A stretch of DNA of 62,516 nt, filler included, from Rhabdomonas costata (Eukaryota): NCBI GenBank assembly GCA_019059605.1. It is 23 parts of 23 records of this genome, joined end to end, with 100 filler letters (N's around TTAATTAATTAA, not from the genome) between each part and the next. Parts side by side here need not be neighbours in the genome. Positions count along the whole stretch, not along the records: positions 21,787 to 24,410 come from JAHMHO010002583.1; 22 more parts are not named here. One strand, written 5' to 3'. This document shows, piece after piece, positions 461-55,970 of the stretch (position 1 is the first letter of the stretch; every line of letters starts with the position of its first letter). The position numbers and the translations under genes were made by a program. The notes beneath the pieces were generated by a model. The model was given only the letters and a program-made list of their open reading frames with translations, made no database searches and was not told the origin of the DNA.

Positions 461-2625
461 ATGTCAGATAATCCAGATGCCAAGGTTGTGGTGCGGTGCC
501 GAGGGGTTCCCTTTCAATCTAATGAGGACACCATGCGGGAGTTTTTCTCAGGCCTTTCCGTTGTGAAGGTGCAGTTCATTGTCAACGAACACGGGCGGGT
601 GGCCGGAGAATGCTTCGTCCAGTTCGCCACAGAGGAGGATGCCGCCAAAGCGCGAGGTGAATCTGTCTTTGGGCGTTGCTGTTTCCCTTGGTAACTTAAC
701 TGGTTTGCAGCAAAAAAAAAGTGGAACGCGGAAGTGTGCAGACAAGGACAAAAGCTGGCTCTATGGGAAAACATGGCTGAGCTAGGGTGTATGATGGGCT
801 TTTCACTTCAGCAAACCATACGGAATTGGCAACGTTTGGAATTCCGACTCGAAATCGACACACCTCGAGAACCCCGCTTTTGTTTCGCTTGCCTTCACAG
901 AACGTGACCGCCAGCACATTGGAGCCCGATACATTGAGGTCTTTCTCACCACTCTGGGAGAAATGGCGATGCACCTCAACTCGATTGCTCAGAGCGGGAG
1001 CTCCATCGTAAAGTTGCGCGGGATGCCCTACAGCGCGACAGAGTCTGACGTGCAGCAGTTTTTCTCTGGACTGGATATTATCCCAAATGGCGTTTACATG
1101 TGCTCCGCGGGGCATGGGCGGCTCACTGGGGAAGCGTTTATCGAGTTCTCATCTCCCAAGGTGGCTGAGGAGGCAATGCAGAGACACAGGCAGATGATGG
1201 GTTCTCGGTACATCGAGCTCTTTCGCTCCTCTCCTGTGGAGCGGAAGATGGCTCAGACGTTTGAAGGCATGAGCGAGTGACTTTGAACTTTACCCTCCTT
1301 CTCACTCTTTTTTTTCCGGTAAGAGCCACTGCAAGCGCGATGCGGTTTCCCGCGTTCCGGTTTCGTTATGGGGTTTCGGTTTTTTTACCGCAGCCCAATT
1401 TTTTTTTGAAAAGGAAACAGACGTTGAAGAGAGCGAAGCCGAAGCAGGCCTGGGTAATAAGCAGGCCTCCCGAATCGCTGCGTGGCCGGTCCTTGGGGTC
1501 ACGAGTTTCTCGACCTTTTGCCTTTGGCCCGTTTTGGTGGCCGTTGGCGGCTCTTTCGTGTCCTTTCGCTTCCTTTTGCCCCACTTCTTGCCCCACGCAG
1601 CGGAGGGTATACGACAGCACCCACAACGTACTTTTCGAGGAACCACCAACGCCGCAGCCCAATTTTTTTGTTTTTTGGGTCTGGTATGTTTTCAGGTTCA
1701 CAGCCTTTGTCTATGTGATGGCTTCTTTCCTTGTTTTCACAACTTGCATCTTTCTTTTTCAGGGCAAGGCGGTCTGCAGAGCCTCCCGAACCATGGCGGT
1801 ACGTTCGAGAGAGGAGGCTATTTGTTCCTATGCCATTGCGTTGTTGCTTGTATTTCTTCTGCAGCATCAGGGCCATCCAAGCAGTCGATGGGTGGTGTCG
1901 GGAGGGCAAAAGGACAGGGATTTGGACAGGGGACGTGGCCTCAGGGGGACCCCGGGTGGGGAGAGGCAATCGTCCTTGCTCCTGTGTTAACTCAGAGATC
2001 ATGATCTTGCCACCAGTCCCCGCCACAGGGAACCTTCCGATGATGAGGAGTACTGACCACTCCTTGAAGTCACCGTTACCCCGGCCATGGGTTGAGCAAT
2101 GGTACGCTTACAAGAAGGGGGAAGGCGGCCACCCTCCAAGGATGGGGAGGAGCTGGTTGGAGAAGGGGAGAAGCGCTTGGAGATGGATGGGGGGCAGCCT
2201 TTCCCCGGGAAGCATGGAAAGCTGGGGGGAAAGCAGGAAGAGCCGTGGGATTCCAGCCACTAGCCGCTGCTGGAGTTCCAGCTGTCTCCGAAGGCACTGA
2301 TGGGAAGATGGGAAGGGATGGGAAATACGTCCTTGGCGTTGGGGCTTTTTGGGCCAGAGGGAGTGAGTTGGCCCGCTTTCCTTTTTCTCAGGAATCAACG
2401 GCAGCGCCTTTGTAGTCCGACTTAGAGGGCTTCCCTTCAGCGCCACCGAGTTAGACATTGCCGACTTCTTCTCCGACGTGAACATCGCCTCTCGTGGAAT
2501 TCACATGGTGCCTTGCTTTTTTTATATCCTTGCTTTTGTGTGCTTGCGCTGGCTATGCTCGAGCTCATGGTTCAGACTGCTCGCGTGGCTCTCACAGGTT
2601 TTCACCAAGTTTGACAAACCCACTA
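461..2625 (+). CDS. hnRNP F/H / ESRP-type quasi-RRM RNA-binding protein (spliced, 3' partial)
   Basis: Exon 461-656 (VVRCRGVPF...GECFVQF) splices GT-AG to 901 (ERDRQHIGARYIEVF). Second qRRM: VKLRGMPYSAT...GEAFIEF...MGSRYIELF. Third qRRM in exons 2392-2507 (VVRLRGLPFSATELDIADFF) and 2598-2625. Middle exons are unresolved. Confidence 0.92.
1584..1622 (+). repeat. Dispersed intronic motif, copy 1
   Basis: 36/39 identical to the reverse complement of 30598-30636 on another contig. Confidence 0.75.
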
Positions 2626-3351: not shown

Positions 3352-6014
3352 TCTGCAGGCTTGTGAACTGCTCTTCAACGCGCACCACAGGAATTTTACA
3401 GGTGCCGTGTAGGCACCCTTCTTGGTTCAACCGCCTGTTTCTTTGCGCTCCTGTGCACGTCTACCTGTGCCCAAAAGGTACACGTGAAGAACGCTTGGGT
3501 GGATCTGTACTGGGTCACTCTGGTGTTCACCACCCCGGGCGTCTTGCGGGCTTGCAGCGAGGTTGTCAAAGCAACGCAACGTTCCGTGGGGCGCGAACGC
3601 AAGAATGCTCCGTGAGAGAAAACCAGGACGGGTTGAGAGAGCTCATGGCAGAGGAGGACCCTGGGCACACCGAGTATGTGGGCATGGGCAGGGTATATTC
3701 CGGAGGAACAACGCGGTACGACACGCTCATCGTGCCCTCCTTAAAGGTATCACACACTCGCACCCAATGGCTCAGCGGCTCGATCGACGATGCAGGCAAC
3801 AACAGGAAACCCACAAGACCACAGGCACGCTGGGAAAAAGGAGGTGGAAAGGAACAATCTCACCCCTAGAAAGCTTGGAGGGAGGGGAGGCTCCAGTTTG
3901 AAGACGTCCCTTGTCACTAAGTAATGTAAAGGCTAAACTGCAATCAGATGTCAAAGAGTGTGCTGCCAGGGCGAACCCCCACAAGAGCGTTCTCAGGTGC
4001 AGATCATGCAAGACTCCCTTTGGGTCAAACCAGATGTATGCGCACATCGCCATGGAGAAGTTTTCTGGGATACTAGAATGCACGGCAGTTAGAGCCAACT
4101 TCTTGGGACGAGTTTTCCTGAACAGAAATTTTAGGAGGAAAAATACGCGTGGAATTTCATCAGCTTTATTTGTCCGCATTCGCAAGCGTTGCAAATCGAT
4201 AACATCATGTTTGTGTTGTAAACAATGCAGAAATATTTAATTAGGGCGTTTCTCAAAGAGCGATAATATCGGAAATCCAGGTGGATTTTTGGTTAATTTG
4301 TTGGTCATTTGCTTTGCAAGTTGGTAGGAGTTACATTATTTTCTTCCGGGTTCAACACATCCATCTGAAAGTTTCCTTGACGATGCGCAGAGAGGATGTC
4401 ACGAGGAAGCATTATCGTTCACAAAGATAACCTGCGGCAAGCATGAGGCCACGGCATTTTAAACCAAATTACACCAAAAAATGGCCTGTGAGTGGTCTGT
4501 GAGCCTCTGTTAGCATGTGCCGATTTCGACCAGAAACAAGCCACGCGCAGTGGGACAGGCAGTATTGGGCCTGTGTAGGCCCTATGGTATATAGGCCCGT
4601 CTCCTCTTGGCGGCATATCGCTTTCCCTTCAAGGGTGTAGCGGTGCACTGTACCAAGAGTTATGCGGGGGGCGTGGGGAAGCCTCGCCCTGGCTATTCTC
4701 CGGACGGAATCCAGTAGCTTCGACCTGTTCGACTGGAAAGTGCAACAACTTCTCTCTCATTTCTCCTTCTCACCCCGACCACAAAGGACAGCCATTTTGA
4801 GTTCTGTTGTTGGTTGAAGCCAGTTGTAGTGGCGATTTGTAAAACCGGTCGAATCAGATTGGGTACTTAGAGAACCCACGTTTCCGTCAAACCCCAGGAA
4901 ATGGAAGAAGAGCTGCAACCAAAAGAATCTCGAGGCCCTCCCCGCGTCTCCGCCCGACAACGAGTGCACTGTCAATTTTTGCATCAGTCCTCTGCTCGTG
5001 CGATCGATTCCTTCCCATTGGGGGCTTCTTGCAAGCGGCTGTATAAAAACAAGGGAAAAATTCTGGAGAGGGCTCAAGAGGAGTTAAAGAGAGGCTTACG
5101 GAACACGGAAGTACAATTACCCAGAGTCGCTGCCACAGTGCCCGGATCCCTTACCGTTTTCCACATCTCTTTCCCCAAAGGTCACCAGTCCGATTTACAA
5201 TACATCTCGACAACAGAGCCTGTTCAAATCGAGCACCAAAGGAAGCCCCATAGCCCCATCACATCGTAACGGTACTAAAGAAGACACACTTTTCTCACAA
5301 GCGGGCGGACAACAATACCGCACGCAACCATGGTTTCAACCCACACAANNNNNNNNNNNNNNNNNNNNNNNNNNNNNNNNNNNNNNNNNNNNTTAATTAA
5401 TTAANNNNNNNNNNNNNNNNNNNNNNNNNNNNNNNNNNNNNNNNNNNNGTTGGTCGGGGTGGCAGGAGGTAAGTTCTACCCTCTTTTATGTTGAGGGGGC
5501 AGAGAGGGCTTAAAGAAGAAAGGCAGAAAACGAGGACCCGAAAGTTGGATGAAAAGAAAACATGTCCCAGCATACAACGCGCGCTACCTATGGGTGCTCG
5601 CACGGGGATCCCCATAATCTTTGTGTTCTCCGGTGCTGAAGGGAAGTCCAGTCGAAACGGAGGCTATGCCGAGCCGTTTCTTTGGGTGTTAACGTCTCTG
5701 GAACACGCTCATCTAAACTGTCACAAACAAAACACGGGTCCTGTTGCGATCAGCGAGCCATAAAACACACAAGCAAAAAGAAAGAGACAGCCCAACGAAG
5801 GAGTGCTGCGGAGAAGCATGACAATCGGTATCGCAAGGAGCGTTGCCGTGCGAGCAACCACGGGAACGACGTTCTTTTTCTGGAAGTCCGCGTTCGGTAC
5901 CAGTGGTTCTATACTGCCATGCCCCCCTAGTGTTGGGCGGTATCTCCAAGGCAAATCTCGAGTTCTGTGGTTCTGTGGTTTTCATGGGTCACTTTTTGGG
6001 GGGCATGGGCTCAG

Positions 6015-8201: not shown

Positions 8202-10356
8202 CCGCCAGCTGCCGAATGCTGACCTTGCTGCGAGCAGGCTTCACTCTAGCGGACTTAAGCTTGGAGTAGTCTGAACAGAATCATTCCCGCGACCACCACC
8301 ACCACCACCACCACCACCCATCAGAGCTCTTTTCAATCTGTACACTTCACCATGAGCTCCCATCCACCATCTCTCTCCACGGGTGCTGCTTGTTTGTTAC
8401 ATGAGATTGCTGCACTCCTATCGTAGAGGGAAAAACACAGGCTCCACTTCTCACATCCTCACTTGAACTCCTCATGGTGCTCATGCTTTTCCAGTAGCCA
8501 CAAATACGTGTGCGCACAAGGAGATTCAAGGGAGAGGAGAAGCACTGACCTAGCACGTTGTTGATCAAAACCAGCGCAGACTGCAGGGCAATGCAAGCCT
8601 TCTGCAGCAGGTCCTTGCGGTCTTCCGTCGCCGTGTCAACCCCGGTCCTGTCTCCCGGAGGAGCGTCCAGCAAGAGGATCTGCATCGCCGTCAACGCGGT
8701 CGTTAGAGGAGTACGAATGTCGTGGCTCACAGAGAGAATCGAGGAGGGAGCGTCCAGGGAACGGCTCTGTACGCTACCCACGTCATCAGAAAGTTCACGG
8801 GCTGCAGACGAGTCGTCGGGAGCACTGATCCGAGGGTTCGTACTTGCCTCACCTTCAGGAAGCATCCACCTGAATAAAAACCACAGGAAACACCCACACA
8901 CACGAATACGAATACCTGCGAGGAAAATACAAAAATAAAGTCAATTCCAATAGAAAGAGGAATTACAAAAACTGTTGGTGCATATTCGAGACATCCACGG
9001 TCCCATCCATGGTGGTTATATGGCATAATTTTTCTTTGTATTTGATTCATATTGTTTATATAACAGACATCTCCAAGGCAATGGCGGGACGGGACGCACA
9101 ACCATCAGACAACCATCATAGAGCTGCAGTGGAGCTCAGAGCCAAGCAAAAAAGAGGAGAGGGTGGAGCGCGTTCCTGAGAACTTTGATCCGGGTGACCG
9201 CCTGGTTCAAGCTCTCCACCTGCCTGAGGTAACGGGCCTGCTGCTCATCCAGCCTTCTCTTCATACTGAGCTGAGCTCTGCAACCTGGGTAGGAGTGCTC
9301 CTCGGAAACCGGAGTGAGCTCCAGCTGCGTGCGCCGCCACTGTTCAGCGCCCTGGTCATAGCCCCTGCGGAGGTCCTCAAGCTCACCCCGCAGCGCAATA
9401 GAAACTTGGCACGATGCCCCGGATTCGCTGATCGGGAGCCCAATGCTGGGCTCCGGCCTGGGCGGAAGTACCAGCTCTTCCTGAGTAAGCGAAAGACGTC
9501 GCCGCGGGGTGGACGGGGTCGACGAAGCCCTCTCCATGTCAAGCACAAGGGGACGAGAGAGCGGAAGGGCACTGGCGGACGTTTCGATCAGGGCTTCGTT
9601 GGTGGTGCTGAATCCAGAGGACGGCACCGGCTGGGCGTTTAGCAAGGAGGAGGGAACTTCGCTTGTGGAAAGCAGATACTCTGCCGGTCCACTGACAGGC
9701 TCAGTTTTGGGGGATAATACCTGCCTTCCGCTGGGGCATCCCCGGAAGTGAGCCACACAAAGGGGAACCATTGACCCTCCGCGAAGGCCGCCGGAGCTCG
9801 CACTGGGGAATCCAATCGCGGACCCGGAGGAGGCCGCATGCTGCCGCTCCCGAGCACGGAGCAAGGTAACCCCTACAGACGAGATGGTAAGAATAAGTGG
9901 AAACCCACTGTTGAGCTCAGCCCAAAAGGAAATCGAGGGCACCAGCACAGTGGCCAGCATGGGAAGGAGCTGAAGCCGGAGCTCCGGGGTCATTCCGGAG
10001 CTCAGAAACTGCATCGCAGCGGGCAGGCAGGCGTGAATGGGAAGGCCGAAACCTCTGCTGAAAACACCGTAGAACACAAGCGCTACCACGTGGGCAGCAC
10101 TGAGCATCGCGAAGCCTGGGGTGGAACGGCCCCTGTAGTGCAGCCAGGAAGCCGAGAAGCACAACGCACCCACAGTGAGAGGCGAGGCCAGCGCCAAAAC
10201 GACGGAGGAGGCCAAGGAGGAAGGGAGGAGAAGTGCACTGTACAGGGTCAGGGAAAAGAGCGTTCCCGACCAGACAAGGTTGCGGAGGAACAGGTCCTTC
10301 CGGAGAAGTGTCTCTACCAGAAGGCAAGGCGGTGGATCGACCCGCATGGAAAGCAT
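8202..10356 (-). CDS. Membrane-anchored sensor histidine kinase (N-terminal TM region plus HisKA; 3' partial)
   Basis: Large first exon (ORF 9136-10356) with several hydrophobic helices and a coiled-coil-like end. Exon 8869-8550 has the H-box SVSHDIRTPL and LVLINNVL, and splices GT-AG to an exon at about 8270 reading DYSKLKS (cf. HisKA consensus LINDILDFSKIE). The first junction is not resolved. Confidence 0.78.
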
Positions 10357-10890: not shown

Positions 10891-13169
10891 TCGGGTTTGC
10901 TGCATCTGGGTCTGACTTCCTCGGCAGCGGGACTGTTTCTTCTGGCCTGTTTGTTTGGGGCGCCGGAGCGAACACAGGCCAAGGAGAAGCAGACTGAAAA
11001 GAAGGCGAAGAAGAGCTACCGTGCGGATGAGGTTGCAGCTCACAACTCAACCAGCACGGGAATCTGGTGCAGCTACAAGGGCAAGGTCTACGACATCACG
11101 AAGTTCGTGGATGTTCATCCCGGGGGCCGTGTGGTGACTTTGGCCGCGGGCAAAGGTTTGACAGACTTTTTTCTTGCTCAGATCCTGCCGAACTGGTCTT
11201 CTTTTTTCTCTCGTTTCCAGCTCTTTGCTCCCCTGAACTGAGTCCGAATTCTAATCGAATGAACTGGCGCTATTTGAGTTTGAATTGCCAGAGATGCCAA
11301 AGAGGGGGGGGGTGTGTGTGCAGCCAAATAGTGTTTTACGTAACCTTTACCTTGTTAATCCCCCCCCCCATTCGGCCGCGTTTACTACCGAGGGTTCGAT
11401 TCCGAGGGAATTCCGGAGGTGACTAGCTGAATGCATTTGCTTTGGGCGCTGCAATCCCAAATGATACCGGATTCAACTTACTCAATTGCGTGGCTCGTTG
11501 GTTCCGATAGCAAATTCCACCTGGTAAAACGAGTTCCATGGTCTGAGTTCGTGCATAAAGGGCCAAGTACCGAAATCAGGCCGACAACAGAAGAGGACAT
11601 TTTTTAAGGAAGAGCGCGAAAACGCAATTATGATTTGTCACTTACACGGGAAACGGTGATCAATTAGAGGTCAGGTCAGATATTTGCTGAAGTGGGAAAT
11701 TGAGGAGGGCACAACGAACAGTCTCTGATGAGCCCAGTTGGGGAATGTCAAAACCTCGTGCGCCAACGCGCGCATTCGGACTCCTTTGCCCGCCATCGCG
11801 CGCCTTCTTTGCAAACGCTGGCCGTCGCCCGCCAACACTTCCGTGGAAGTCGGGTAACTTCAAACAAAAAACAAACCTGTCGCGCTCCATCGCGCTAACG
11901 CAACTTAGCCTGCCGTTGGCCGCCATCGCCGGCCGTCGCCATCGTTCGTCGCGCCCCTTTGAGCACAAAATGTTCACAACGGCAGGGGAAAAGGCAACTG
12001 AAAAAGTAGCAACTGAAAAGCGTGCTCCAATTGACCCTTTTCTGGCTTTTGGGTGATTCGACTTGGATTAAAGCGTTTATAATGTTATTTCAGACCTGGC
12101 ACCGTTCTGGGCGATGTACACCATACACACGGCCTCTGACACTGCACTGAAAATGTTGGGGCCTTTCGAGATCGGCAATCTCGTGGCAGAGCCCGCTGCT
12201 GGCGCGACAACGATGCCCTGCTTGGGTGTGCTTTGTTTCCCTTTTTTCTGTTGCAGCGAAAATCGAAATTTTTTTTGGGGGAATTACAGCTTCGGTGCTT
12301 CACCAGTGCCGTTGCTTTGGTAGATTGGCTGCCTTCCACCTTGCTTGCAGCCTGAACTGTGGTTGTATGATTTTGTAAGTGGTGTATTCGCAACTATTCA
12401 AGATGAATTGCAGGAAACAAGCCTTCTGTCTGTTCCGGCGTTACCGTTCCCGGAATGGGGGCTCGGCCTCTGAGCTGTACCCCCCTCTCTGGCGCCGAGT
12501 CGGCAAGCGGTTGAGCGCCAACTTGGGTGGGCAATGTTGGGTTCCCTTTCTTGTGAATACTAGAACGTAGACTAGAGGTGTGTTTGCGTAGAGGATGTGT
12601 AGAGGTTGTGTAGAGGTTATCCCGTCCACATCTTCGAACCGTGCCTGTGCGCAGTTGCGGTTCATAATAAACAAGCCTTCGTTTTTGTTGTGGACTGCAA
12701 CAGCGGCGGACCCGCCGAAGGCCGATGACTACGACTTTGTGCTCAAGCGCAGCCCCTTGCTCAGTGTGCTGAGCAAGAAGCCGTTCAACGCAGAGCCTCC
12801 CTCTGAGTTACTCTCGGCCGCCTTTATCACGGTACACTGGGGCACCATTATCCTTTGATCTTTTCCGACCTTCTCTTGCAATTGCAACCTCATTGGGACT
12901 CAGGATGGTGCGAGAAGCGAGCTGGAACCGCAGGTTGGTTTGAAGGCATGACATTCACTGGGACCGATTCTTTTTCATCCCCCGGGGAATCTTCATCTCA
13001 CCTGTGGGCTTTTTGCTGTGTACCCGCCCGTTTCTTTTCCGAACACTGCAGCCTGCGGACATCAGCTTTATCCGCAGCCACATCCACACCCCCAAGCTAG
13101 ACGCGGACAAATGGAGTGTGGAGATTTCTGGGCTCGGCATCCCCAAGCCCGTGACCTTCACCTTGAAAG
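10891..13169 (+). CDS. SUOX: Sulfite oxidase with cytochrome b5 domain (partial)
   Basis: Exons: 10891-11155 (EVAAHN..GIW..YKGKVYDITKFVDVHPGG), 12094-about 12225 (DLAPFWAMYTIH), 12704-12831 (KKPFNAEPPSELL...FIT), 13052-13169 (FIRSHIHTP). The order b5, linker, Moco domain is as in animal sulfite oxidase. Confidence 0.9.
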
Positions 13170-15680: not shown

Positions 15681-16362
15681 CAACTTTGGGGATTGGAGAT
15701 AATGGGGGTGTAAGAAGACATTTCGGTTCAAAGGCGGGACATTCTCCGTGGGCACCGTGTGCCGTTGAGTCTCCATAGGGCGGTTGCGGACTACTGCGTG
15801 CGAGCTGCCTCACACATAATCGAAGCGCAAAGCGTCGTAAGTGCCACAAGGGTGAGACATACCATCCATTCATTTCAATGTCCCATAAGATGTGCACCCC
15901 CTGCAATTGGGCGCATACAATCTAAGCGCTCGACGAGCATTCAGGCCGGCGAGTCTTCTGACTTACCGCACCATACCTTCAATCCCATCCTGTACACAAC
16001 TTTTTCTAATTCAGTTTACCCCACTCCAACTCCTCAAGAAACTGGCCACCTTCCGGGGCGCTGGGCTTGGACTTGGAGGGGCTGCTGGAGGAGCTTCCTG
16101 CCTTCCTTCTCGGCGGCGAGGACGGGGCCTCTGTGGTTTCCGGGCAGAGCGGGGGTGTGGCCGGGGCGGGCTCCAAGTTTGCCGCTGTGGGGCCAGCGGG
16201 CCGGCCACACCCCCGCTCTGCCCGGAAACCACAAACACNNNNNNNNNNNNNNNNNNNNNNNNNNNNNNNNNNNNNNNNNNNNTTAATTAATTAANNNNNN
16301 NNNNNNNNNNNNNNNNNNNNNNNNNNNNNNNNNNNNNNTGTGATAGGTGTGTTTGGGGGTTG

Positions 16363-17096
16363 TGTTTCTGGATGAGTTTCAATTCTCTTGTTAGGATTTG
16401 GGTGTGGGCCTTCTGATTAGGTTTCTGGGTTTGAGTTCAGGTGTCTGTACTTGTTTCATTTCACTCCTGTGCTGTATTAGTGGCGGATACTATCAGTAAC
16501 ACTTGCGGCTTTTGTGTTCTTTCTTATGTCCCGTCATTTGGAGTTATGCCATTTTTTCTGCATTAGTCGTGTGTGCCGTCGTGATTTCGATGCGGCGGGG
16601 ACTGTCTTCTGCAAATGGGAATTTTATCCAACCTGATGTGTTTCTGATTTTCTATTTTATTGGGTTTGAAGTTGCGCTTGACAGCGTGGCTACGGAGACC
16701 AGACGTTAAATTACAGCTTTAATAACCAAAAAACAATGCAGGCAGGCAATTGTACCCGCACTCAAAGTGAGAAGTTCATATTCTACTTCATTTCGACTTG
16801 AGTCTACATTGCTTTATTCTACAAAATTACCGTATCAAGTGTATCTCCATGTAGAGGTGCCATTCTGCACTAATACTGATCATGTTTTCATATTTGGACA
16901 TCGCTAAAAAATAGACTGAAACAGTTTGTGATTCCGTACATTGACGGTAGCTTGGGTCGCTTCTATTGATATGAATGTAGAACCGGTGTTTGATTTCTGT
17001 TTCTGGATGAGTTTCAATTCTCTTGTTAGGATTTGGGTGTGGGCCTTCTGATTAGGTTTCTGGGTTTGAGTTCAGGTGTCTGTACTTGTTTCATTT
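16363..17096 (+). repeat. 99-bp perfect direct repeat (16363-16461 and 16998-17096)
   Basis: Identical by eye. The first copy abuts a G/T primer-like contig start, so it is probably an amplification chimera. Confidence 0.9.
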
Positions 17097-20000: not shown

Positions 20001-21841
20001 CACGACCATGAGCGTGCAGAGAAGACATAGACGTGGAAACCTATAGAAGCCAAGAAGAAGACGCACGAGAATGATCAGAATACCATGACGTCTCACGGGA
20101 TTCACTTGCCTGCCTTGAGGTCTGCAGCTTCCTTATTGCAGGAGCGATGTGGAAAACCCATCCTTCCTGAGGTACCTTGATCATCTCTCATGTGCTAATG
20201 CCAGCGCAAATAGCTCACTCAATAGCTTCAATTCTCCACGACCAAGCTCCTGCTTAGCTGCTAGCGACCGTTGTTAGTCCCGATGGTGACAACCCACAGG
20301 CACTCATCCTATCACCACATAGTCCAATTGGGCGTCAACTCAGCGGTAGCTCTCTGCAAGTAATGTCCATTGGTGCCTTGAGACTAAATGGGAAGTCCTG
20401 ACTAAATGGGAAGTCCTAAAGGGCCACGCGAAGGCGCTCGGATGGGTATGGTTTCCTCGGTTCCCGATTCCTACCACAACGAAATAGAGAAAACCCGACA
20501 GATACTGGAATCTACAGACTATTCCGACGACGTCAACCCCCACCCCCGTCTTGCCATATTTCCCGAGTGCTCGTTTCCGTCGTTCACTGAATAGACGTCA
20601 TCAAGACCCCAACCCAATCAGCTATTCCGCTGTCGAGCGTTTCCCAAAGTCGACTCGCGAAGAAGCCCGAAGCAGGAGAAAGGCAAATTCCCGTAAACAG
20701 ACATCTCCACCGGTCAAAAAAAGGTTTTTGCCCCGGCAGAGTGAGGTCGAACTCGGGTAAGGGGGGGAAACAAACCAGCAGTCCACTGCGAGCACCCCGA
20801 AGAAGGCCATCCGGAACAGCACCAGCCCCCCGTAGGACGCCACGCATACGAACCACGCGCCGCCTGCGCCGGCCCCACCCTGCGTCCTGATCCCCTCGGC
20901 GCCCCGAGAGGGTGCCGGCGAAGGGGCCACGGAGGGGGTGCCCATTCCACTGTGGTTCGCAGAGCCGTGGGAGAGCCGAGAGGCAGCCGCCTCCCGTGAC
21001 AGCCTCTCCGCTTTCCGAGGGGTGAGCCACATTGCCACTGGACAGCAGTGACTCAGTCACAAAAATGGGGGGTGGCAAACCACACACCGGGCACTCCAAC
21101 AGGCAGCGACTGCTGCGAGAAAGGTCTGCGGACATAGTTTTGGATTCTTCCATGGCTGTGCCAATATCGCTGGACTCATTGCTCCACTTCGCGATGACTT
21201 CTCAATTGAAAAAGCTCTTTTCAATTGTTTCATCTACACCGCCTCGCTATATCATGGAAAGGATGAGAAAAGGTGCCGGACGACTTATGGAACTCCCTGT
21301 AAAACGAAATTTCTGCAGCTGGCCTCCGCATAACATCAACAAAAAAAGACTGCGCACAATGCAGCACCACAACAAAAAGGGTGTCGAGAGATAGTGAATG
21401 CGCGAGAAGGGGGAAAGCCCAGTCGCACGGACGAAAGTGACCGAGCAGACCGTCATGTATTTGTGAGTATGTGGCTAGAATTATACTGCTTCATACCATT
21501 GCAGCCCGAACCACCCGCCATTCTTCCAGCATCCCGCCCACATCACAGGACTGCCGCTTGTGCCGTCAGCCCTCATTCCCACCTCCCCGGTCACAGTCCA
21601 CGCGGCAACGATGAAATCGCCCCCGCAACACTACACAACAACGAGAAAAAACGAAGGGTCAGCAAAACCCCCTCCTCCCTGACCTCNNNNNNNNNNNNNN
21701 NNNNNNNNNNNNNNNNNNNNNNNNNNNNNNTTAATTAATTAANNNNNNNNNNNNNNNNNNNNNNNNNNNNNNNNNNNNNNNNNNNNTGTGGGGGGGGGGT
21801 CTGGAGAAAAGGCGGCTTTCCGTGGAACCCTCGATGGCGCA

Positions 21842-23089
21842 CTAGATATTGGGGTCGCTGGAGAAGCTGGAGGGGTCGATGTGAGTGAAGGTGTCGATAT
21901 TAATCTCGTCCATGTGCTCAATCATGGCGTCGCCGAACTCGGACGTTTTGAGCTTCTTGGCGCCCTCCATTTGATGGGCAAAGTCAAACGTCACCTGGAA
22001 GAAGTGCAGGGCAATCGTTTTGGAGCAGCGCGGGAGAGGCATTAGGCGCGTGAGATAATATGACCATCTCACCTCCAGAGAGTTTCTCAGTACAGCGATC
22101 CCATAAGCAGCGCGGAAAATCCCCCTCGACATGAGATGCAAGCGGAGATTCGGAGGTGCGACGCTTCTGTCTCCGCCATTCATTAAATATCTGAACAAGG
22201 GCACCTGCATTTCCACAAACAGCATTTGCACAGCGCAACAGGAAGGCACGACCTGTTTGCACGCGATGGTGCGGTCCAGCGCGAGCAGGATGACATTGGC
22301 TGCGCGGCTCCAGCCCATGTGCCGCAACATCATCTCTCCGCTGAGAATCACCTGTGCGAGGGAGGGAGCCACGGGGCAAGGAAGAGGGAAGTGCGGAAAG
22401 GATATCTGTTGGTTAGAGCAAGACCCAAGAAACCGTGCGCAGAAACGGAGAGGGGAGCATTGGTTCTCTTTTACCCACGATGACTCTTGTTCCCGTCAGC
22501 TCTTTGTTCTCACTTCGTTGTCTCAGAAAGTGCATCGCCACCGCAAGTGAGCGAGGGTGTGGGGTGGAGTGTGAGTAGGGGTCTTCATGCCGAGCCAGGA
22601 TTGACGACGTCCAGGTTGGCGAAGCGCGGGGCAGTGCCGTGGGTGGCCTCAAACACGGCATGGCCGGTGAGGTAATTGATGTTCCCCCCAGGGGCAATCC
22701 CGATGCCTCCCACCTGGAAGCAGCCCCACCCCCGTCATTCCGAAGATCCTCCGCTGCAACCCATTCGATCCATGCAGTCCGTTCCAAATCCACTGTGAAG
22801 ACGGTATGGTATTGCACTGGTCCCGAAATCAACGGAGAGCAATGGCACCCCATGCTATAGCACGCCTCCTCAATTCTGTTCTTCTGTGCTGGAAAAACCC
22901 GCACAAAAAGCACCTCCCTCACCAGCACACAATAGAACTACCTACGGATATACGAGAAAGCTGCAACGAAACTGCAGGATTTGGTTGACAAGTGCCCACT
23001 AAACCCCAAAGGCAAACCTGGGCAGCAAGGGCGTCGCTGAGATAGTCCCCGTTCAGGTTAGTGGTCGCAATAACGTCAAAGTTTTGCGG
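21842..23089 (-). CDS. icd: Isocitrate dehydrogenase, E. coli Icd-type, C-terminal four exons
   Basis: Exons: 23089-23018 ([24 protein letters not shown]), 22713-22591 ([13 protein letters not shown]...FEATHGTAP...VNPGS, GC donor), 22351-22253 ([14 protein letters not shown]), 21994-21842 ([25 protein letters not shown], stop). Very close to the E. coli Icd C-terminus as recalled. Confidence 0.93.
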
Positions 23090-23673
23090 CTGTGGGTGCA
23101 TCAAAAAAGCTTAACAACGAAGAAGGAAAGGACGCACGGGACATAGAGGTTTTCATAAGAACAAAAGCATAAACGTTCAAGTTGGCATATTATAAACCGT
23201 CGTTGTGTGTGTGTGGGGGGGGGATTACACACATCTTTGGAAGTCCCTCCGCAAAGCAACTCCTGCCCTCATCAAATTTCATGAACTTGACGTACGACGG
23301 GCTTAGGACATATAAAAAATTCTTCTGCTCATGTGCTCCAGGAGTTGGATGGCTGGTGCAGCCCAAACGCTCGCAGACTGCCAGGGTGCTCACTTCAGGC
23401 TACCGGCTCACCATTGCAACTTCGTCGGGTCTGTGGAACCTGCCTCATGGTTCACTGGCTTGTGGGCGGCATAGTACCCCGATATTCTGGGCTTGCTGTG
23501 ACTTACTTAATGTCGGTTATACTGCCATTGCTGCGGCGGCTGTGATGCCTTCTTCCTGTTCTCTGAGGCATTGGATGCCCTTGGGCAACCAATCTGGAAG
23601 TGCCTTTTTGGGATTAGAATTAAGCTCTCCGACATTGCAAGAAGAGGCTCTGAAAACAGAGTGCCAAGTTGAC

Positions 23674-24135
23674 CTTCAGATCCCTGTGAACAATCGCCCG
23701 TGCGTGCAGATAAACAAGCGCGTTGATCAACTGGAGGGTAATCTCCACCGCTTCGTGCTCCGATAGTGAACCCTTACTTTTAATGACGTCAAACAGCTCT
23801 CCGCCCCGCACGTACTCCTCCACCAGATACGTAAAGTCCGTGTCTTGAAAGGCGTCGTACAGCTTTACACAGTAAGTGGAGTCCAAGCTGCGCAGGATAG
23901 CAACTTCGTGCGCTGTGCAGCGAAGCTGCTTTGGAGTCTTTGCAACGACCTTGACCGCGTACACCTGCCCAGCTTCTACCCCCACGTATTCAGGGTCAAA
24001 CCGGCTTTGCTTGCACGTCACCCGATAAACACTGGCGAAAGCACCGGAACCCAAGCTAACTTTCGTGTCCCAGTCAAAAAGAAGCTGAGCGCTGTCCTGG
24101 CGCATGTACCGCAGGTATGGGAGGGAGGACTCCAT
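23674..24135 (-). CDS. CaMK-group Ser/Thr protein kinase, N-terminal exon only (to HRDLK)
   Basis: LGSGAFASV, YAVKVV, HEVAIL, VKLYDAF, YLVEEYVRGGELFD, IVHRDLK, then a phase-0 GT donor at 23673. I found no DFG/APE exon downstream. Confidence 0.9.
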
Positions 24136-25639
24136 TCGGTGCAGGAAAGGTAGGTAAAACGAAAACGGTGCTGCCAGTGCAGCGAAAGATGGCATTAGCT
24201 TTGCATTTCATTCCAAAACAAAAGATGGAGCAGAAAAATAGACACATAGGTATCCCATTTTGCTTCAGACTCTGCTGGATTTTATGTTTCGTTTCTTTAC
24301 ACCCCCCAACACATTCGATTCATATTGCGCCAGCATGTTGGCCTCGAGGGGTTTCTTGAGCACCTAGCTGCCCTTGAATGTCCCCAGACTCCACTTCCCT
24401 TCTTGCGTTANNNNNNNNNNNNNNNNNNNNNNNNNNNNNNNNNNNNNNNNNNNNTTAATTAATTAANNNNNNNNNNNNNNNNNNNNNNNNNNNNNNNNNN
24501 NNNNNNNNNNGGTTTTTGTGGAACCCTCCGTTTAAATCATGCGCAAGTTGGGCCATCCCAAATTAATAAATGAAGGCAAATGGTCGGTTATGTCGAAGCG
24601 TGGTCGTTCGGTACCGGCCCTTTTTTAGACCTTTTGTCTCCAAATTGCCTTTTGGTCTTCGTTTGTCCCGCGGTACCTTGACAATAATGGGGAATAGTCC
24701 GTCTGACATTCCGGCTGGAACGCCCATAAAAAGAGGAAAGGGCGGAACAAGGAGACCGAGGTGCGTAAGAAATTTCCCCCCCTCCCGCATTTGCGTCCGA
24801 AAAAATCCAAGTGACGTCCAAAATTCAAGTGTGGTCGACCGAGTTTTTTTTGTTGTCTAACCGCACGTGACCTTTGGTTTGAACCAATTGATTTGAACCA
24901 CATGTTTCAGAAGTAGCTGTCAGAGCGGAACATTTCCAGCACAAAGACTTTGGCTCTCCTGAGCTCCTGTGGCTCTACTGTTGTGTGGCTCAAACCCAAA
25001 CGTTTGTAGAACTTTCTCTTTTTTAAACAGATAAATCAGTAGCATATCAGTCAGACGTGAAGCCTACATAAGAGACACTAAACATGTCGTAATCTACCAT
25101 GGGCAAGCACCGCACATGTGGCTTCCATCGGCGGAAGACCACGTTACCCACGTGTCTATTACAAGAAGGCAAAGCAGCAGCAGCAGCAGCAGAAGACAGA
25201 AGGCCATATTTTTCCAAAAAAGAAGTCATCTTGGCTTCACCTGTACACAAACTATCAAGATCAAAAAATTGAACACCTGAAAACAGCTCCACATCTAGAT
25301 GTATGTTCCACATGGGACACCCCCAGCACATGAGTGGCGATCTAATCACCAAATTTTCTAATGTGGATCCAAAAGTGAATTTAAGCCAAAAGCAAAATTA
25401 AATATAATAATATACATAAAAAAGTAACTATAAAAGTTTACATAAATAATAAATATAGTAGTATGCATAAATAACACATCAATACTACAAACTACGTGCA
25501 TATTATATTATTTTAATATATCGCGGTGGACAGTTTTATTTGGAGAACTCAAAAGTTGAGATGAAAGTACATCTAAAACACACGTACAACGAGTTTACTG
25601 AATGAAAAATTCGTGAAACACCGAATTTCTGTACAATAG

Positions 25640-26820
25640 TATGCAAAGTAGTTCGATACAATGCCCCCATGCAGTACTGAACAGCTGTTTACTGAAAGCG
25701 TTGCATTCACACGCGAATATCGTTTTTGGATAAGTCTGTAGATACGGTACCAAGTCCGCTGCTTAAATGAGGCTAATGCAGATGGATTGAGCCCAAAAAT
25801 GTTGAGAAGTTGGTAACGTTACTTCAAACCGTTGAAAAAACGGCTACATCTAAGTTTGGCAAATTACGTTGGATTAACAAAAGCAATAACAGTAGAACCT
25901 AGAACCTCGTTTGCCATTTTGCTCGCGTCAGCAAAGGTACTTCTTTAGAGGCCTGGAAGCGCATAAATGAGAAAATGGACTGTATTGGCAAACAACGTAA
26001 AGCACCTTTTTCACGAAAACAAAGCTGATTAAAACATCGCCCATTAGATTAATCATGGAAGAGTTCCTCCATGTTGTAATTTTGGTGCATCACTCTTTAT
26101 AGATTTCGCCACCATTCTTTTTAAATAATCTTGAGCATCAACAGGCACAACCAAAATCACACATTATCCGCGATTTGTATTAAATGGAGCATTAAACAAA
26201 ATGCAAAAATACTTTATCAAAGTTTGTGATGCACAACCGCCATTTTCACAGAATCAAAAGTCTGTTAATGTCGAATAAAACGATGGACATTCTTGTGATT
26301 AAGGCTCACCAAAACAAATTGGTTGGGGTTGAACGCTTTATTACCTGTTGAAGAAAGCATCAAGCACGAAAATAATGTCAACTGTTGCTTTGTGTCCGCA
26401 TCTTACGGAAGTGGTCACTCACTTGTGGACGATTGAAAACTTTTGGCGTGCTTGTACACATTTTATGTGCGGAAAATACGAGAATCTGTACGTTTTTATC
26501 ACAAGTTCTATTGCATGCCAATTGTAGAATACTCTCATGATTTGTCAGCATTAAAAACTTCATGGATTGAATGCACCGATATGGTGGAAGTAATGTGGTG
26601 GAAGTTGGTTCTATGTACCCTTCGTTTCATGGCGTTTCAAAGCCTCATTAGTCAGCTCTATTATTTATTTATTATTTTATTTATTATTTATTTATTATTT
26701 ATTATTTAAATATTTTTGAATAACGGTTACACTTTTGCGATTGTCATTTTTGTTGTTTTTTTGTTTCTGTGTTCATCTTCTGACTCTGTCAAGCTGGAGC
26801 ATAATTGCTCACAAATAAAG
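25640..26820 (+). mobile_element. Possible highly decayed hAT-type transposase relic in AT-rich DNA
   Basis: Frameshifted fragments in hAT order: VRYNA (cf. TRWNS), LL-KPLKK-ATSK, MWWK-GSMYPSF, and LEHNCS (cf. ERxFS). Many stops. Confidence 0.25.
26659..26707. repeat. (TTA/TTTA)n low-complexity tract
   Basis: Seen directly. Confidence 0.85.
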
Positions 26821-37715: not shown

Positions 37716-39390
37716 CTAGGTTGCCACGCAAAAGAGAGGCGCTTTTTACTCACACGATGAACACGCTGGGTATCTATTCCCAGAAAAAGAAAAAAGTACT
37801 CATCGATTCTGAAGCGGCATTAGCTGACAATAGAATCTTGATGGCTGGGACAAACACTGCAGTGATGGTAAAACAGCCCAAGAATGGCATGTACGAGAAA
37901 TGTTACCAAAGTCTTTACCTTGCAGAGAAGAAATACGAGCAAAACACGGGCTTGAACTCGCTGATGGGGAAACATTTTTGTCAACCTCATATGAGCGCGC
38001 GCTACACCGCGTGCACCGCTNNNNNNNNNNNNNNNNNNNNNNNNNNNNNNNNNNNNNNNNNNNNTTAATTAATTAANNNNNNNNNNNNNNNNNNNNNNNN
38101 NNNNNNNNNNNNNNNNNNNNTTTTGGTGGGCGGCCCGCGAGATGGGGTTTGTTGTTGTTTGTCGTTTATTTTGCTTACTGTGGACCTTTGCGCGTTACCC
38201 GTCGTTGTTTCCCTGTTGTCTGGATTCCTCGGGGGTCCCGGTACGGTGCCGCAGGGAGTCCCATTCGATCGTGCGGAACTGTCGTGTTCAACGGCGTCTT
38301 TGTATGCTGGTTGCGCTGTGCTTTGTGGCAGTTCACCCCCCCCCCCGCCACGCGGCGGAGGAATGTGTGTGTCCCCCTGCTCCATTTTGCCCATCCTAGT
38401 AGGCGACATTTGGTTTCGTTTCCTCTGCTGCCGGACCTTGCGCAAGAACGCCATGAACATGAACATCGGGAAGGTTTCGGCAAACGCAGATCCCATAAAG
38501 CAGACACAGTTTAATTTCATCCTGTGGCCCACCCACCACTCCGAATTTCCACTTCGGGAGCTTTCCGGGCGCTCAAGAGTTGCTGGATTCTCGGCAAGAA
38601 GAGCGGGGAAGGCCGGACCCTATCTTACAACTGGGTGCATATGGTAATTTTGGGGGGCAAAAGTAGCATGGTTGACAAGTCGCGTCGAGCAACCCCCTAG
38701 GAACCAAAGGCCCTTAGTCACGCCATCGGGTAACTATCAGGAAAAACAAAAAACTCAGTACTGGTGTTCGACTTGGCCACAGGAAAGTGGAAACAAAAAA
38801 CCAAACAAACACAGCAAAGCCCGAGATCATCCTGCGCAGGGGTTCAAAGCGTTCAAAGTCCGGCACAGCACCGAAGAACAGTACAAGAAGTACAAGAAAA
38901 AAAGGGAGGGGAGCGAGGAGCAGAGGAAGCATGGGAGTGGGTGCGCATGAACGAACACCACGAAACCCTGGGAGTGGGAGAAACGGGGGCGTTTCCTGCA
39001 CAACGAGAGGTGCGTGCAAAGGAAAAAACCAAACTGGAGGAGGCGCACAGCAGCCAAGTGTTGTTGGTGGCGCCACTGCTCGGGCGTTCAGTGTCAAGAA
39101 CCCTCCCGCCAAAAAGTTTGACACCTGAAATAACCCATTGAAGAGCGGCGAATGTGTCCTTTGCGCCAAGCAGTGTACCCCATGCGCGTACTTAAATATT
39201 CACCGACACACCAATGGGGCTGTTTGAGGACTGAACCTGAGCTTGAGTTTGAGGAAACCCGAGGAAGTGGTAATAAAAAAGGCAGCGTACTGTGCCAGCT
39301 GCCATCGTGGATTTCCACAGAAAGCGGGGAAGTGCAGGGCATAAAACTGGAGAGGATCAGACCAGAGAGATGGCACATGCGACGGTTGCA

Positions 39391-43561: not shown

Positions 43562-45509
43562 GGGGTGTTGTAGGCTCCGCAGTAGGTCCCCGTGGTGAGG
43601 GAGTTTGCCGGGATCGAACTGAAGTAGCACCCGGAGGCCGGCGCAGAAGACACGCAGCTCCACCCCGCCGTTAGCGCACCGGAGGTGGTGCAGGACACGC
43701 TGCTCGGGCTGCTGGCACTCCGAGTGTACCCTGCCCCAAAAACCACGAAATGGAGGTGGTGTCATGATAAGGCAAGACGACAAGATTCCTCTTCTCCCAC
43801 GGGAGGCACTCGCATTGCAGCACACTACGGCTCCAAAGCGGGCCGCCCATCGGGCGGTGAGAATCACTTCCACTTCTGCGGAGGGCTGCAGAGGCCTTGC
43901 AAGACCCATGGGGTGGGGTGCACTCCTGCGCAATAAATACACTTCCGTTTCTCTCTGAGGGCATAACCATCCGCACCCTTCGCCCCACAACATGCACACA
44001 CAAAAAGAAGCAAAGCACCCTTCCGATCCAAAAGAAAAAGAATATAAGGAAACGCACTAGTCTGGAGTTTGCCAGCCCATCTCACAAAGACGGCTGCACA
44101 GCGGGGGGACAGGGGATGGGACGGGGAAAGGGAGGGGAGAGGCTCACGCACAACAAACCCGTGGCACAGTCCACCGTGCATGAGCCCGTAAAGGTCGCGG
44201 TGGACGAGCTGTAGGCCCCGCAGGATGGCGCGGAAGTCAGCGAGTTCGCCGGGATGGAGGGGAAGTAGCAGGCTGGCACAGGGGCAGGAGCCGCCGCGGT
44301 GGTCCGCACGCACCGCACGAAGTTCTTCACCCGAACGGCATCGCCCTGGGGGCCGTGGCCGTTGGGGTAGGTCGTGCCGTCGTCGATCTTGGGGTCGGAC
44401 CGCACCGCACCCGCCCCGTGAACGTCTATCCACGCCCCGTTCATGTACCCCATGGCCCTCCCTCGGGTGACGTAGATCGCCCAGTCCACGTTGCCGTCAT
44501 ACAGCGTGGTCGAGGTCCACTCCCAGCCCCAGTCCGTGCTACCGTCCTCCACCGTCAGAGAGGTCGCCATGAAGATCGCCGGCAGGGCAGGGGAGCTCGT
44601 GGTCTTCGGGGAGCGCGTGTAGTCGCTGATCGACTGCGCCTCCTTGGCCGTCGGGAGGCGCCAGTCGCTGTACCCCGCAACCGTGGAGGCCTCGCAGTAC
44701 TGCAGCGCTGAGGGCCAGTCCATCGACCCGGCCCCGCTCACACTCCCGCTGTCCGCCTTCATCCACTGCAACCCCGTGCTGGAGTCCACGATGGTCTGGT
44801 CGCCCATGTCCGTCAGCGTGTTCGTGCCGTAGGCCACAGAGCCCCCCGTTGGGGTTCCCCGCACGTACAGCACCTCGAAGTTCTTGGTCAAGGGGTAGCA
44901 CTTGATTCTCCCGTCCGCGAGGTTCACCCCAAACACGCACTGCTGCCCACTCATCACCTTCGACACGTATTGCGTGCTGGTCACAAACTGCGAGTCAATC
45001 TCCCGCGTCTCCCCCCGGGACAGCCCGTACAGGAACTGGAACGCCGTCGTGTTCACGAACGGGGTGCACACGCCCGTGCAGCTGCTCGCCGCAGACTGGA
45101 TCACTCCGTTGTAGTTGATCAGCGAGAACAGCTCCTTGATCGTGGGCAGGCGCCAGTCCGTGTATCCTCCTGTGGTCACGGAGGACACCGAGGACACCGC
45201 CTGGGCGTAGTTCAGCTTGGAGGCGGTGAGGTGATTGGTCCACATCAGCCCCGTGACCGTGTCCGTGACCGTGGCCGTTGTGGCCTGGGACCCGATAAAG
45301 CCTGGGGGGTTGATGGTGTACGAGGCGTCCTGGCCATAGTATGGGGAGAGAGTGCTGGGACAGGTGGCGACGGACCAGTGGGTGTTGGAGAGGGTGGTGC
45401 AGAAGGTTTGGCCCGTGTCGGGGACGCTGTAGGCCGCCGCTCCGGCCAGTAGGCCAGCCACGACCACACACAGCGACAACCCTAGGTGCCGGGGAGCTTT
45501 GCCCTTCAT
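43562..45509 (-). CDS. Secreted tandem DUF1566 (Lcl C-terminal-like) protein with Cys-rich repeats (3' partial)
   Basis: ATG at 45509 with a signal peptide, then PDTGQ..C, YGQDA, VTDTVTGLMW, DWRLPTIKEL, and a second repeat DSSTGLQW, GYSDWRLPTAKE, ending NFVRCVR. Intron 44158-43731, then the repeated unit CYF.SIPANSLT....CGAY. Confidence 0.88.
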
Positions 45510-46281
45510 CGGCGTTTGTGCAGGAGGGGGGGCGGGGGCCAAAGGAAAGGATCGAAAGCGAGTGCGGGCCTGGAGTGGATTGAGGTGAGGAACCTTCGGG
45601 GGGTGCAGAAGAGAGAGGTGGAAACAGGTGGGGAAAAAACTCACAACGGTGGCCCCCAAGGGGTGTGCACGATCGTCGCTGCAGAAGAGAAGCTCAGAGA
45701 CATGCGCCACCGGAAACCCTGATTGCAGCAGACTGTGCGTAGCGAGAGTTTCCTTAGAAAGCCGGACTTTTGCAGGGATGATCGTTTTGGGAATACCGCT
45801 GAGCTCCCCGCGAGCTTAATCGCGGGCGGTCATCCTTTCCAGCAGAGAGGGGGGCGATCCTGACTACAGGTGAAACCCGGGTTCCAAGCAGTTTATAGTA
45901 GGTGATTTTCTGAAGCACGTCTAATGAGCATCAGTTGAAAGCCGTGCCAAGGGCAAAAACTTGACTCACTCGCTTTTCACCTCTGGGGTGCTGCCGTTCC
46001 AACTGGGGACTTGCAGATACCTCAGCGGTGCATCCTCTGCTTGCGTGACGGAGGACACGGGGGGGCGTTGGCGCGTTGGCGCGTTGCATTTCGATGGACC
46101 AGCTGAAGTCTATGATGTACCAGCTGCTCTACGGCCTGCTCTTCATGCACAAGGCAAGACTGCCCATACCACCCCCCCCACNNNNNNNNNNNNNNNNNNN
46201 NNNNNNNNNNNNNNNNNNNNNNNNNTTAATTAATTAANNNNNNNNNNNNNNNNNNNNNNNNNNNNNNNNNNNNNNNNNNNN

Positions 46282-48534: not shown

Positions 48535-49122
48535 GTGTGGGTGAGGCGAGTCCAGGTTCAAAGCGGAATTTTGAAGTGTGAGCTCCGTTTCTGCTTCTCC
48601 TTCGGCAACCTGAGGTGGGGCTTGGATTCGATAAATTCGCGCATGCCGAGCGGATTTCGGTGTCTTTGCACAGGGGAAACCCAGACTGATGAATGATACC
48701 TCCCTTAAGACGTCTGAAGAGGGGCATACGTGTGCCGGGGTCACATGTGTGTGTGTGAAAGTTCCACAATGCCCTGAATCGGAAGCCACCCACGGACGCA
48801 CCCTCACGCACACGCACGCACGCACGCACACACAGGTTCGAGAGAAGCCCCAGCCCCCACCCACCCCCCAAAAAAGGAGTACAGAGCCAAACAAACAACC
48901 ACCCACACCCAACACANNNNNNNNNNNNNNNNNNNNNNNNNNNNNNNNNNNNNNNNNNNNTTAATTAATTAANNNNNNNNNNNNNNNNNNNNNNNNNNNN
49001 NNNNNNNNNNNNNNNNTTGTGTTTTGAAGCCGCGAGGGTTTGAGAGAGTGAGCGAGCGAGCGAGTGAGTGCGCGAGTGAATGTATATCCTCTTAATCATG
49101 GTTTGTACCTGCGTCAGTCTCG

Positions 49123-54860: not shown

Positions 54861-55970
54861 GTAGTGTTATTCGTAGAGTGTGTGTGTTGCCAAGAGTTGG
54901 TGTGGTGGTGTGGTGGGGTTGGGCTCTGCGTCATAGTGCCACTGGAGAAGGTGGGTCAATCCATGGTGTTCTGCCTCCGCTTCATCACCACCCCCATTAC
55001 CACGCCAATGATGGTAACAAAAATGTCGATAGTTCTTGGTTCTCTCGTTTTTTCGATGGTGTTTTTTTTCTTACATCCCAATTTAAACGCTTCCTCAGAT
55101 TAACAACAGGCCTTGTTCTGGACTGTTGTAAAAAGACAAAATACAAAACGGGTTAGTTTAGGATAGCTAATATACCGTGATTCCTGCATCCTTTCATGGC
55201 TCTCCGTCGCAGCTTGGTGTGTTTCTTGCTGCATTTAGTTTTAAACGGGATATAATTTACCCCCCGGTTTTGTTGCACTTAATTGTGCAATAGTTGAGGA
55301 AATATTCAAGTTCAGAAACCTCTGGGTGTTTCTTCTTAATTTGGTTCTTTTTTTACTTCTTTTTTTGCATGTAAAAAGAAAATGTCATCCCTCACAGCAA
55401 TGTGGCGGTAAAAGAAGGTTGCGAAGTCCCGCTATGTACAAAAAAGGTAGAAAACATCAGAGATGGCATGAGGAAGTAACACCAAAGTTTTGGGGGACAG
55501 AGCTCTCTGATCGGAGCAAGAACACAAACAGGGGAATAGGGGTGCAAGATCGAGGGATAAAAAACGCACGAGATATCCAACATCAGGGAGCTGCCTCGGT
55601 GGAAGCTCTCCAAAGAAGGTTGCCCGGAACCGACGATCCCAGAGGGCTTCCAGCCTCACCACTAAGCCACGGTGTTGTAACGGGCATAACGACCCTCTAG
55701 TTCGCATGCTAAGATAGTGGTCACCTAGGACATCCGCAAGACGACCACAACCAATTGTGTGCTCGGAGGAATTATTTTTGACTTTCCTAAATTTTTATAG
55801 AGGTATAAGCCGAAGGAGGCCTGGGGTCTTTTCTAAACTTTCCTAAAAATTTCATAATTTTACATTTAAATTTCAAATGTGATGCTGGTTCAACTGTTTT
55901 GTTATTTCCCCATTTCCCCTTGTTTTTTTCAGGTTTGTTTATTTTGCAAGGTTTGGTGACCGTTTGACAG

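Follow-up and report, generated by a model that had tools for sequence, protein, structure and literature searches.

This study concerns an apparent gene fusion in the draft genome of the euglenid Rhabdomonas costata (GCA_019059605.1), where the first coding exon of a protein kinase gene lies upstream of the end of an isocitrate dehydrogenase (IDH) gene on one short contig. The window that we analysed, the whole stretch of 62,516 bases, consists of 23 contigs of 2617-2635 nucleotides (nt) each, apparently ordered by length and separated by 22 identical 100-nt linkers (44 N, TTAATTAATTAA, 44 N) at positions 2626-2725, 5349-5448 and so on up to 59797-59896; any feature that crosses a linker is meaningless. 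A sequence-only reading of this DNA had reported the kinase and IDH elements, and we found them where it had placed them, on the minus strand and all within a single 2624-nt contig. In window coordinates, the contig and its features are as follows.

21787..24410: the contig bearing the kinase and IDH halves, 2624 nt, ninth piece of the window, flanked by linkers (N/TTAATTAATTAA)
23674..24135, minus strand: first coding exon of a CAMK-like Ser/Thr kinase, 462 nt, 154 amino acids (aa), M...IVHRDLK; assigned by Pfam and a near-identical protein
23672..23673, minus strand: GT donor directly after the K154 codon; sequence GTCAAC
23224..23673, minus strand: non-coding stretch next to the kinase exon, 450 nt, presumably the beginning of kinase intron 1, even base composition
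23202..23223, plus strand: G/T-only tract, GTTGTGTGTGTGTGG+GGGGGGG, then AT; 22 nt, probable join
23090..23201, minus strand: end of an IDH intron, T-rich (40% T), 112 nt, ending in a CAG acceptor (...CCCACAG, 23090/23091)
23018..23089, minus strand: IDH exon starting PQNFDV, 72 nt, GT donor; Iso_dh E 1.9e-6
22591..22713, minus strand: IDH exon ending VNPGS, 123 nt, followed by a GC donor (GC-AG intron 22352-22590)
22253..22351, minus strand: IDH exon ending ACKQ, 99 nt, GT donor
21842..21994, minus strand: last IDH exon, 153 nt, with a 22-residue C-terminal extension and a TAG stop
21787..21800, plus strand: terminal G/T-only tail TGTGGGGGGGGGGT at the left end of the contig; shares TGT+G9 with the internal tract

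The kinase exon matches Pfam Pkinase (PF00069) with an E-value of 1.2e-26 over profile positions 3-125 of 263, which corresponds to the N-lobe through the catalytic loop only. Its translation contains a Gly-rich loop (GSGAFAS), a Lys within YAVKV, the segment HEVAILRSL and, at its end, HRDLK; in the usual naming of kinase motifs, these include the Gly-rich loop, the VAIK lysine and the alpha-C glutamate. Translation and scripted joining of the exons confirmed that the exon ends in IVHRDLK at a phase-0 GT donor at 23673. Only one of the eight proteins that match the exon is near-identical to it, namely EukProt RCo050826 (P0006) of Rhabdomonas costata (EP00906), a protein of 438 aa that agrees with the exon at 152 of 154 residues. 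The two differences, E2Q and H127Q (minus-strand codons 24132-24130 and 23757-23755), possibly reflect an allele, a paralogue or amplification error. The best solved matches of RCo050826 are CAMK-group kinases (CDPKs, DAPK1 and CaMK1/2, E 1e-34 to 1e-28), and, compared with these, the contig carries the N-lobe through HRDLK only.

After HRDLK, RCo050826 reads PDNVLVTENPITGKRNVKLIDFGFAKF...YRAPEALL, a stretch that begins PDNVLVTENP and contains its own DFG (IDFGFAKF) and APE. The contig and RCo050826 part ways exactly at the GT donor after K154. According to a passage in PMC8219788, R. costata proteins were predicted from the transcriptome rather than from the genome. Because RCo050826 is transcript-derived and continues HRDLK-PDN, a normal full-length kinase mRNA makes use of the exon on this contig and takes its PDN from another one. 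When we searched the window with tblastn, residues 1-163 of RCo050826 were matched and nothing else fell below E 0.22, so that residues 155-438 were not found there; a permissive search for the kinase C-lobe, DFG and APE on the contig gave a best E of 0.30. The HRDxKxxN catalytic loop is not encoded as one unit, with only HRDLK being present on the kinase exon. No Pfam match was found in the 450 non-coding nt that follow the kinase exon (23224..23673). The earlier failure to see a further kinase exon in the ~580 nt after the donor was borne out, and we found none elsewhere on the contig or in the window. A metagenome scan with the full kinase returned 49 loci at 25-50% identity, none of which was conspecific.

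On the IDH side, Pfam Iso_dh (PF00180) matches three of the four exons, at profile positions 230-252, 254-292 and 294-324 of 348. The C-terminal third of the protein is present, including the NLNGDY.SD metal/substrate loop and the GTAP..AG segment, and translation together with the Iso_dh match agrees with the claim that the acceptor at 23090 opens a phase-0 IDH exon. The exons resemble the prokaryote-type homodimeric NADP IDH (Icd; PDB 1hqs, 3icd), aligning to residues ~306-432 of proteins of 432-464 aa, and their best solved match is 1hqs_A (E 2e-17). Likewise, six full-length bacterial-type IDHs align to the contig by tblastn only with residues ~306-432, while their residues 1-305, the nucleotide-binding domain, gave no match at E<1 in the whole window. 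It had been noted that each half of the apparent fusion is incomplete, and indeed neither DFG/APE nor the ~305 N-terminal IDH residues were found on the contig or in the window.

Compared with bacterial or metagenomic IDHs, the 42-aa exon is 93-95% identical, the third exon 46-59% and the last exon 64% over 28 aa; the PQNFDV exon reaches 74%, in an alignment of 31 aa that extends into residues encoded by the intron. The 42-aa exon has 7999 protein matches; those listed, 120 in number, share 88-95% identity with it and are all of bacterial or metagenomic origin, with no EukProt protein among them. A database search with the 50-aa last exon returned no protein match. Unlike prokaryote-type IDHs, the R. 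costata piece has three spliceosomal introns (GT-AG, GC-AG and GT-AG, all phase 0) as well as the 22-residue C-terminal extension. The contig thus holds, at 21842-23089 on the minus strand, part of a bacterial-type NADP-IDH with three phase-0 introns, one of them GC-AG. Since these introns are spliceosomal, this is a nuclear eukaryotic gene of prokaryotic type. Two NADP-IDH transcripts whose best hits are of bacterial type appear in the supplement of PMC8219788, namely RCo050230 (Deltaproteobacteria, 1.4e-173) and RCo040025 (Monosiga, 3.3e-184), and an entry there also gives a Euglena gracilis orthologue for R. costata NADP-IDH.

We then considered whether the two halves are joined in a meaningful way. 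The gap from the kinase donor to the IDH acceptor is 584 nt, and the predicted nucleotide splice junction between the two exons is GATCTGAAG|CCGCAAAAC. The five exons (462, 72, 123, 99 and 153 nt) are all phase 0, and scripted joining yields 302 aa with no internal stop and with HRDLKPQN at the kinase/IDH junction, just as the sequence-only reading had predicted (an uninterrupted frame of ~302 aa). Its headline claim, that a natural in-frame splice rebuilds the kinase catalytic loop, is not supported: RCo050826 continues HRDLK-PDNVLV with a DFG and an APE of its own, and PQN is ordinary IDH sequence. Bacterial-type IDHs, when aligned, read RP[KDE]EFDVIATMNLNGDY at the PQN site. Among the 120 listed IDH relatives, 90 have this motif and 30, apparently mostly fragments, do not. 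Where R. costata IDH reads PQN, its relatives chiefly read PDE, PEE or PKE (PDE 53, PEE 19, PKE 10, PED 4, PDD 2 and PTD 2 of the 90 listed). Pro occupies the first position in 90/90 of these motif-bearing relatives and Asn the third position in 0/90. P is therefore invariant IDH sequence, whereas Q and N stand in for acidic residues and are specific to this lineage. The kinase exon happens to stop after K and the IDH exon to start at the invariant Pro, which yields HRDLKPQN, and, as every IDH exon is phase 0, the fit in frame with a phase-0 donor is unremarkable. The junction motif is a coincidence, not beyond chance. The content of G+C at third codon positions (GC3) is 0.66 in one half and 0.79 in the other (about 150 codons each), a difference too weak to argue for two organisms. 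An exact look-up of nine contig open reading frames (ORFs) in a protein collection found none of them, and the 197-aa junction-spanning ORF, compared with 1.84 billion representatives, had as its sole match an unrelated repetitive protein (E 1.8e-6, 32% identity). Neither these searches nor the metagenome scan turned up a separately assembled copy of either flank.

PMC8219788, the only paper that we found on a draft genome of this species, states that R. costata DNA was amplified with Sigma WGA4, a whole-genome amplification (WGA) kit, and that the raw reads were assembled with SPAdes 3.7.0. The draft contigs reported there are very short (N50 1194 nt, maximum 8093 nt), which its authors attributed to uneven amplification (PMC8219788). 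The contigs of the window fit such a WGA4-amplified SPAdes assembly. PMC4833346 names TGTGTTGGGTGTGTTTGG as the ‘WGA-specific’ adapter of Sigma WGA kits, and PMC10781638 gives the Sigma WGA primer as TGTGTTGGGTGTGTTTGG with a tail of ten K (G/T) positions and two N (K10NN).

Traces of this primer are found at the contig ends. Of the 23 contigs, 17 start with G/T-only runs of 6 nt or more (mostly 10-14 nt), and 18 end with A/C-only runs of 6 nt or more; the contigs thereby resemble products of GenomePlex-type primer-tailed WGA, with G/T-only 5' and A/C-only 3' tails of about 10-14 nt. Allowing up to two mismatches, the TGTGTTGGGTGTGTTTGG 18-mer occurs three times in the window (0.12 expected), each time at a contig end: two copies finish exactly at the contig end (16339 and 48916) and the third lies in a 45-nt A/C tail, at 57034-57051. 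The contig-end tails are untrimmed amplification-primer remnants. Examples of such remnants lie at 1-31, 16339-16367, 48887-48916, 57032-57076 and 59770-59796, and the 45-nt tail at 57032-57076 resembles two tandem primer units.

The interval between the kinase donor and the IDH acceptor contains a similar element. The 22-nt G/T-only tract that had been suspected as an artefactual join is present at 23202-23223. Over its first 15 nt it agrees with the 3' part of the universal Sigma WGA primer at 13/15 positions, and a run of G comes next. With up to two mismatches, this 15-nt 3' part of the primer has five matches in the window against 0.22 expected; four lie in contig-end tails and the fifth is 23202-23216. 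We also built primer models from the last n bases of the 18-mer (U) plus m G/T positions (K). The U12+K7 model gave seven matches, against 0.05 in shuffles, five of them within 25 nt of a contig end; the two internal ones are the tract at 23202-23223 and one in the fifteenth contig. The strand and side of the tract are those expected for the 5' primer tail of a stand-alone kinase piece (23224-24410); read on the minus strand, that piece would end at its 3' side, as is usual here, in an A/C tail. The 112 nt on its IDH side are T-rich and resemble the end of an intron, while the 450 nt on its kinase side do not. Elsewhere, internal primer-like tracts lie at 38791-38813 (contig 15), 28409-28428 (contig 11) and 54878-54923 (contig 21), and contig 10 has an A/C12-to-G/T13 junction at 26307-26331. 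These further tracts could mark other artefactual joins.

We consider it likely that two unrelated Rhabdomonas-like euglenid loci were artefactually joined in this contig, at or next to the G/T tract, in which case no kinase-IDH fusion protein is made. The first piece, running from 24410 to 23224 on the minus strand, would carry a CAMK-like kinase from its 5' region through the first exon into the beginning of intron 1; the second, from 23201 to 21787, would carry the four final exons of a bacterial-type NADP isocitrate dehydrogenase, preceded by the tail of an intron. Contig DNA would have been made by primer-tailed whole-genome amplification by the polymerase chain reaction (PCR), with the primers left untrimmed, and the G/T tract would be the primer remnant that closes the kinase piece. 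One or a few chimeric molecules or reads may then have bridged two dead-end pieces, for example if a broken IDH fragment was joined to the primer end of a kinase amplicon; alternatively, a chimera could have been carried over from a small-k assembly step. The assembler would have kept the bridge where low, uneven coverage offered no competing path. We infer that the join is absent from the genome, and how it formed, whereas the two gene halves and their extent, the true continuation of the kinase, the native P of IDH, the primer tails at contig ends and the primer-like build of the tract are direct results. Three origins had been offered by the sequence-only reading (a natural exon-shuffled chimera, a kinase exon inside a long IDH intron, or an amplification or assembly chimera), and of these the chimera at the G/T tract is the best supported, by the tails and by the anatomy and orientation of the tract, while the natural chimera is not.

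Several points weigh against an artefactual join. The argument for it is drawn from assembled sequence. The 13/15 match to the primer is also expected of a (GT)n microsatellite, and seven G/T positions follow it, not ten; under a stricter U8+K10 model with at most one mismatch, the tract, with seven G after its primer-like part, was not matched. About 11 (GT)n-like tracts occur inside the 23 contigs. Internal runs of at least 12 nt number 52 for G/T and 47 for A/C; set beside 50 purine and 43 pyrimidine runs, this is no enrichment. It may thus be that the tract is of natural microsatellite origin and matches the primer about equally well, and the chance of a natural G/T tract falling in the 584-nt interval is roughly 0.1. 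The window has 7 junctions from A/C to G/T and the controls have 2-5, which is no clear enrichment. There is no A/C tail on the IDH side, so simple end-to-end concatenation of amplicons does not explain the join. A 22-nt repeat is presumably shorter than the final k of SPAdes, which means that the junction must stand in some reads, derived either from a chimeric molecule or from real DNA. Both halves have intact frames and splice sites, and E2Q and H127Q could mark a second genomic copy of the kinase exon. Finally, the window gives little purchase on how common chimeras are. A Pfam scan covered 374 of the 430 ORFs that measure at least 70 aa from stop to stop (the 56 omitted are shorter than 100 aa and come from contigs 17-23), and domains were found on six contigs only, too few for a chimera base rate. 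The kinase/IDH contig is the only one with two families, counting the separately identified IDH exons, as its IDH ORFs were unmatched in that scan. None of the papers that we found gives a chimera rate for the Sigma WGA kit; PMC4527218 measured chimeras for multiple displacement amplification only.

Taken together, all readings in which the junction is not an artefact seem unlikely to us. The one that fares best among them, and that we nevertheless regard as quite improbable, is that the adjacency is real and inert, with a partial copy of one gene (the 5' end of the kinase or the 3' end of IDH) inserted beside the other in a repeat-rich euglenid genome. The tract would then be a natural microsatellite, and the functional full-length genes would lie elsewhere or would use one of the halves. 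A second copy of the kinase exon might well differ from RCo050826 at 2/154 residues, and no identical protein was found for the last or the 42-aa IDH exon, even though bacterial-type NADP-IDH transcripts are listed in the supplement cited above; that internal G/T tracts are common and not specifically enriched fits this scenario as well. Nonetheless, both halves are free of stops and frameshifts and have kept their splice sites, the tract is primer-like and oriented as at a contig end, and the two substitutions would equally fit PCR error or alleles. It would also be an unusual coincidence for partial duplicates to keep the exon-intron structure exact on either side in a span of 600 nt.

If, alternatively, both genes are intact and both extend from this contig, they would have to be interleaved on the same strand, with the 5' exons of IDH located upstream of where the kinase begins and the 3' exons of the kinase located beyond the IDH stop. 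Kinase exon 1 would thus sit in an IDH intron and the last four IDH exons in kinase intron 1, with each mRNA skipping the exons of the other gene. This arrangement would account for the intact exons and splice sites and for a full-length kinase transcript that uses this exon. Yet the contig ends 55 nt past the IDH stop with no kinase exon 2 on it, the contig has no IDH exon ahead of the kinase start, and the primer-like tract falls within the interval. To our knowledge, same-strand interleaving of unrelated genes is very rare, and we think it very improbable here. Slightly less probable still, and the least probable of the readings that we weighed, is a gene made by natural exon shuffling, whose transcript would be spliced from 23673 to 23090 and encode 302 aa with a kinase N-lobe and an IDH C-terminus, since the GT donor, the CAG acceptor with its T-rich tract, the phase 0-phase 0 junction and the uninterrupted ORF that speak for it are set against a product without DFG, APE, C-lobe and ~305 N-terminal IDH residues, 0/8 matches to the kinase exon that combine Pkinase with Iso_dh, a different exon 2 in RCo050826, a PQN that is native to IDH and a frame fit that is not special when all IDH exons are phase 0.

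Other contigs of the window hold recognizable domains. Contig 17 (43562-46181) has an uninterrupted 577-aa ORF at 44085-45815 on the minus strand with an Lcl C-terminal domain (E 5.7e-37), and the region 44001-46000 has 62% G+C; this contig may derive from contaminating bacteria and not from the euglenid. Contig 4 encodes a HisKA phospho-acceptor domain (E 2.3e-7) at 8350-8940, minus strand, beside a 406-aa ORF (9139-10356, minus strand) that has no Pfam match. On contig 22, a 5'-nucleotidase C-terminal domain is split collinearly between 57179-58291 and 59256-59768, both on the minus strand, at profile positions 28-123 and then 125-154; the gap of ~960 nt fits one long intron and shows this contig, at least, to be internally coherent. 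Contig 1 encodes two RRM_1 domains (404-691 and 795-1277, plus strand), and contig 5 encodes a cytochrome b5 domain (10891-11238, plus strand) with a G9(TG)4 tract at 11304-11320, 66 nt after the ORF.

Even if it were real, the fusion would be biologically minor, because its product would lack half of each fold. There is a very small chance, in our estimation a little above that of the interleaved genes themselves, that the junction is genomic, in an interleaved or young exon-shuffled locus, and that occasional splicing from 23673 to 23090 gives a transcript with a kinase N-lobe and an IDH tail. Were that the case, it would represent live exon shuffling, eased by exons that are all in phase 0. 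The wider meaning of our finding concerns how this genome is read. Contigs here have untrimmed primer tails, and some have internal primer-like tracts. Apparent fusions, domain shuffles and odd gene neighbourhoods on such contigs therefore require read support before they are believed, and primer-like G/T-only or A/C-only tracts between incompatible gene halves offer a screen for candidates.

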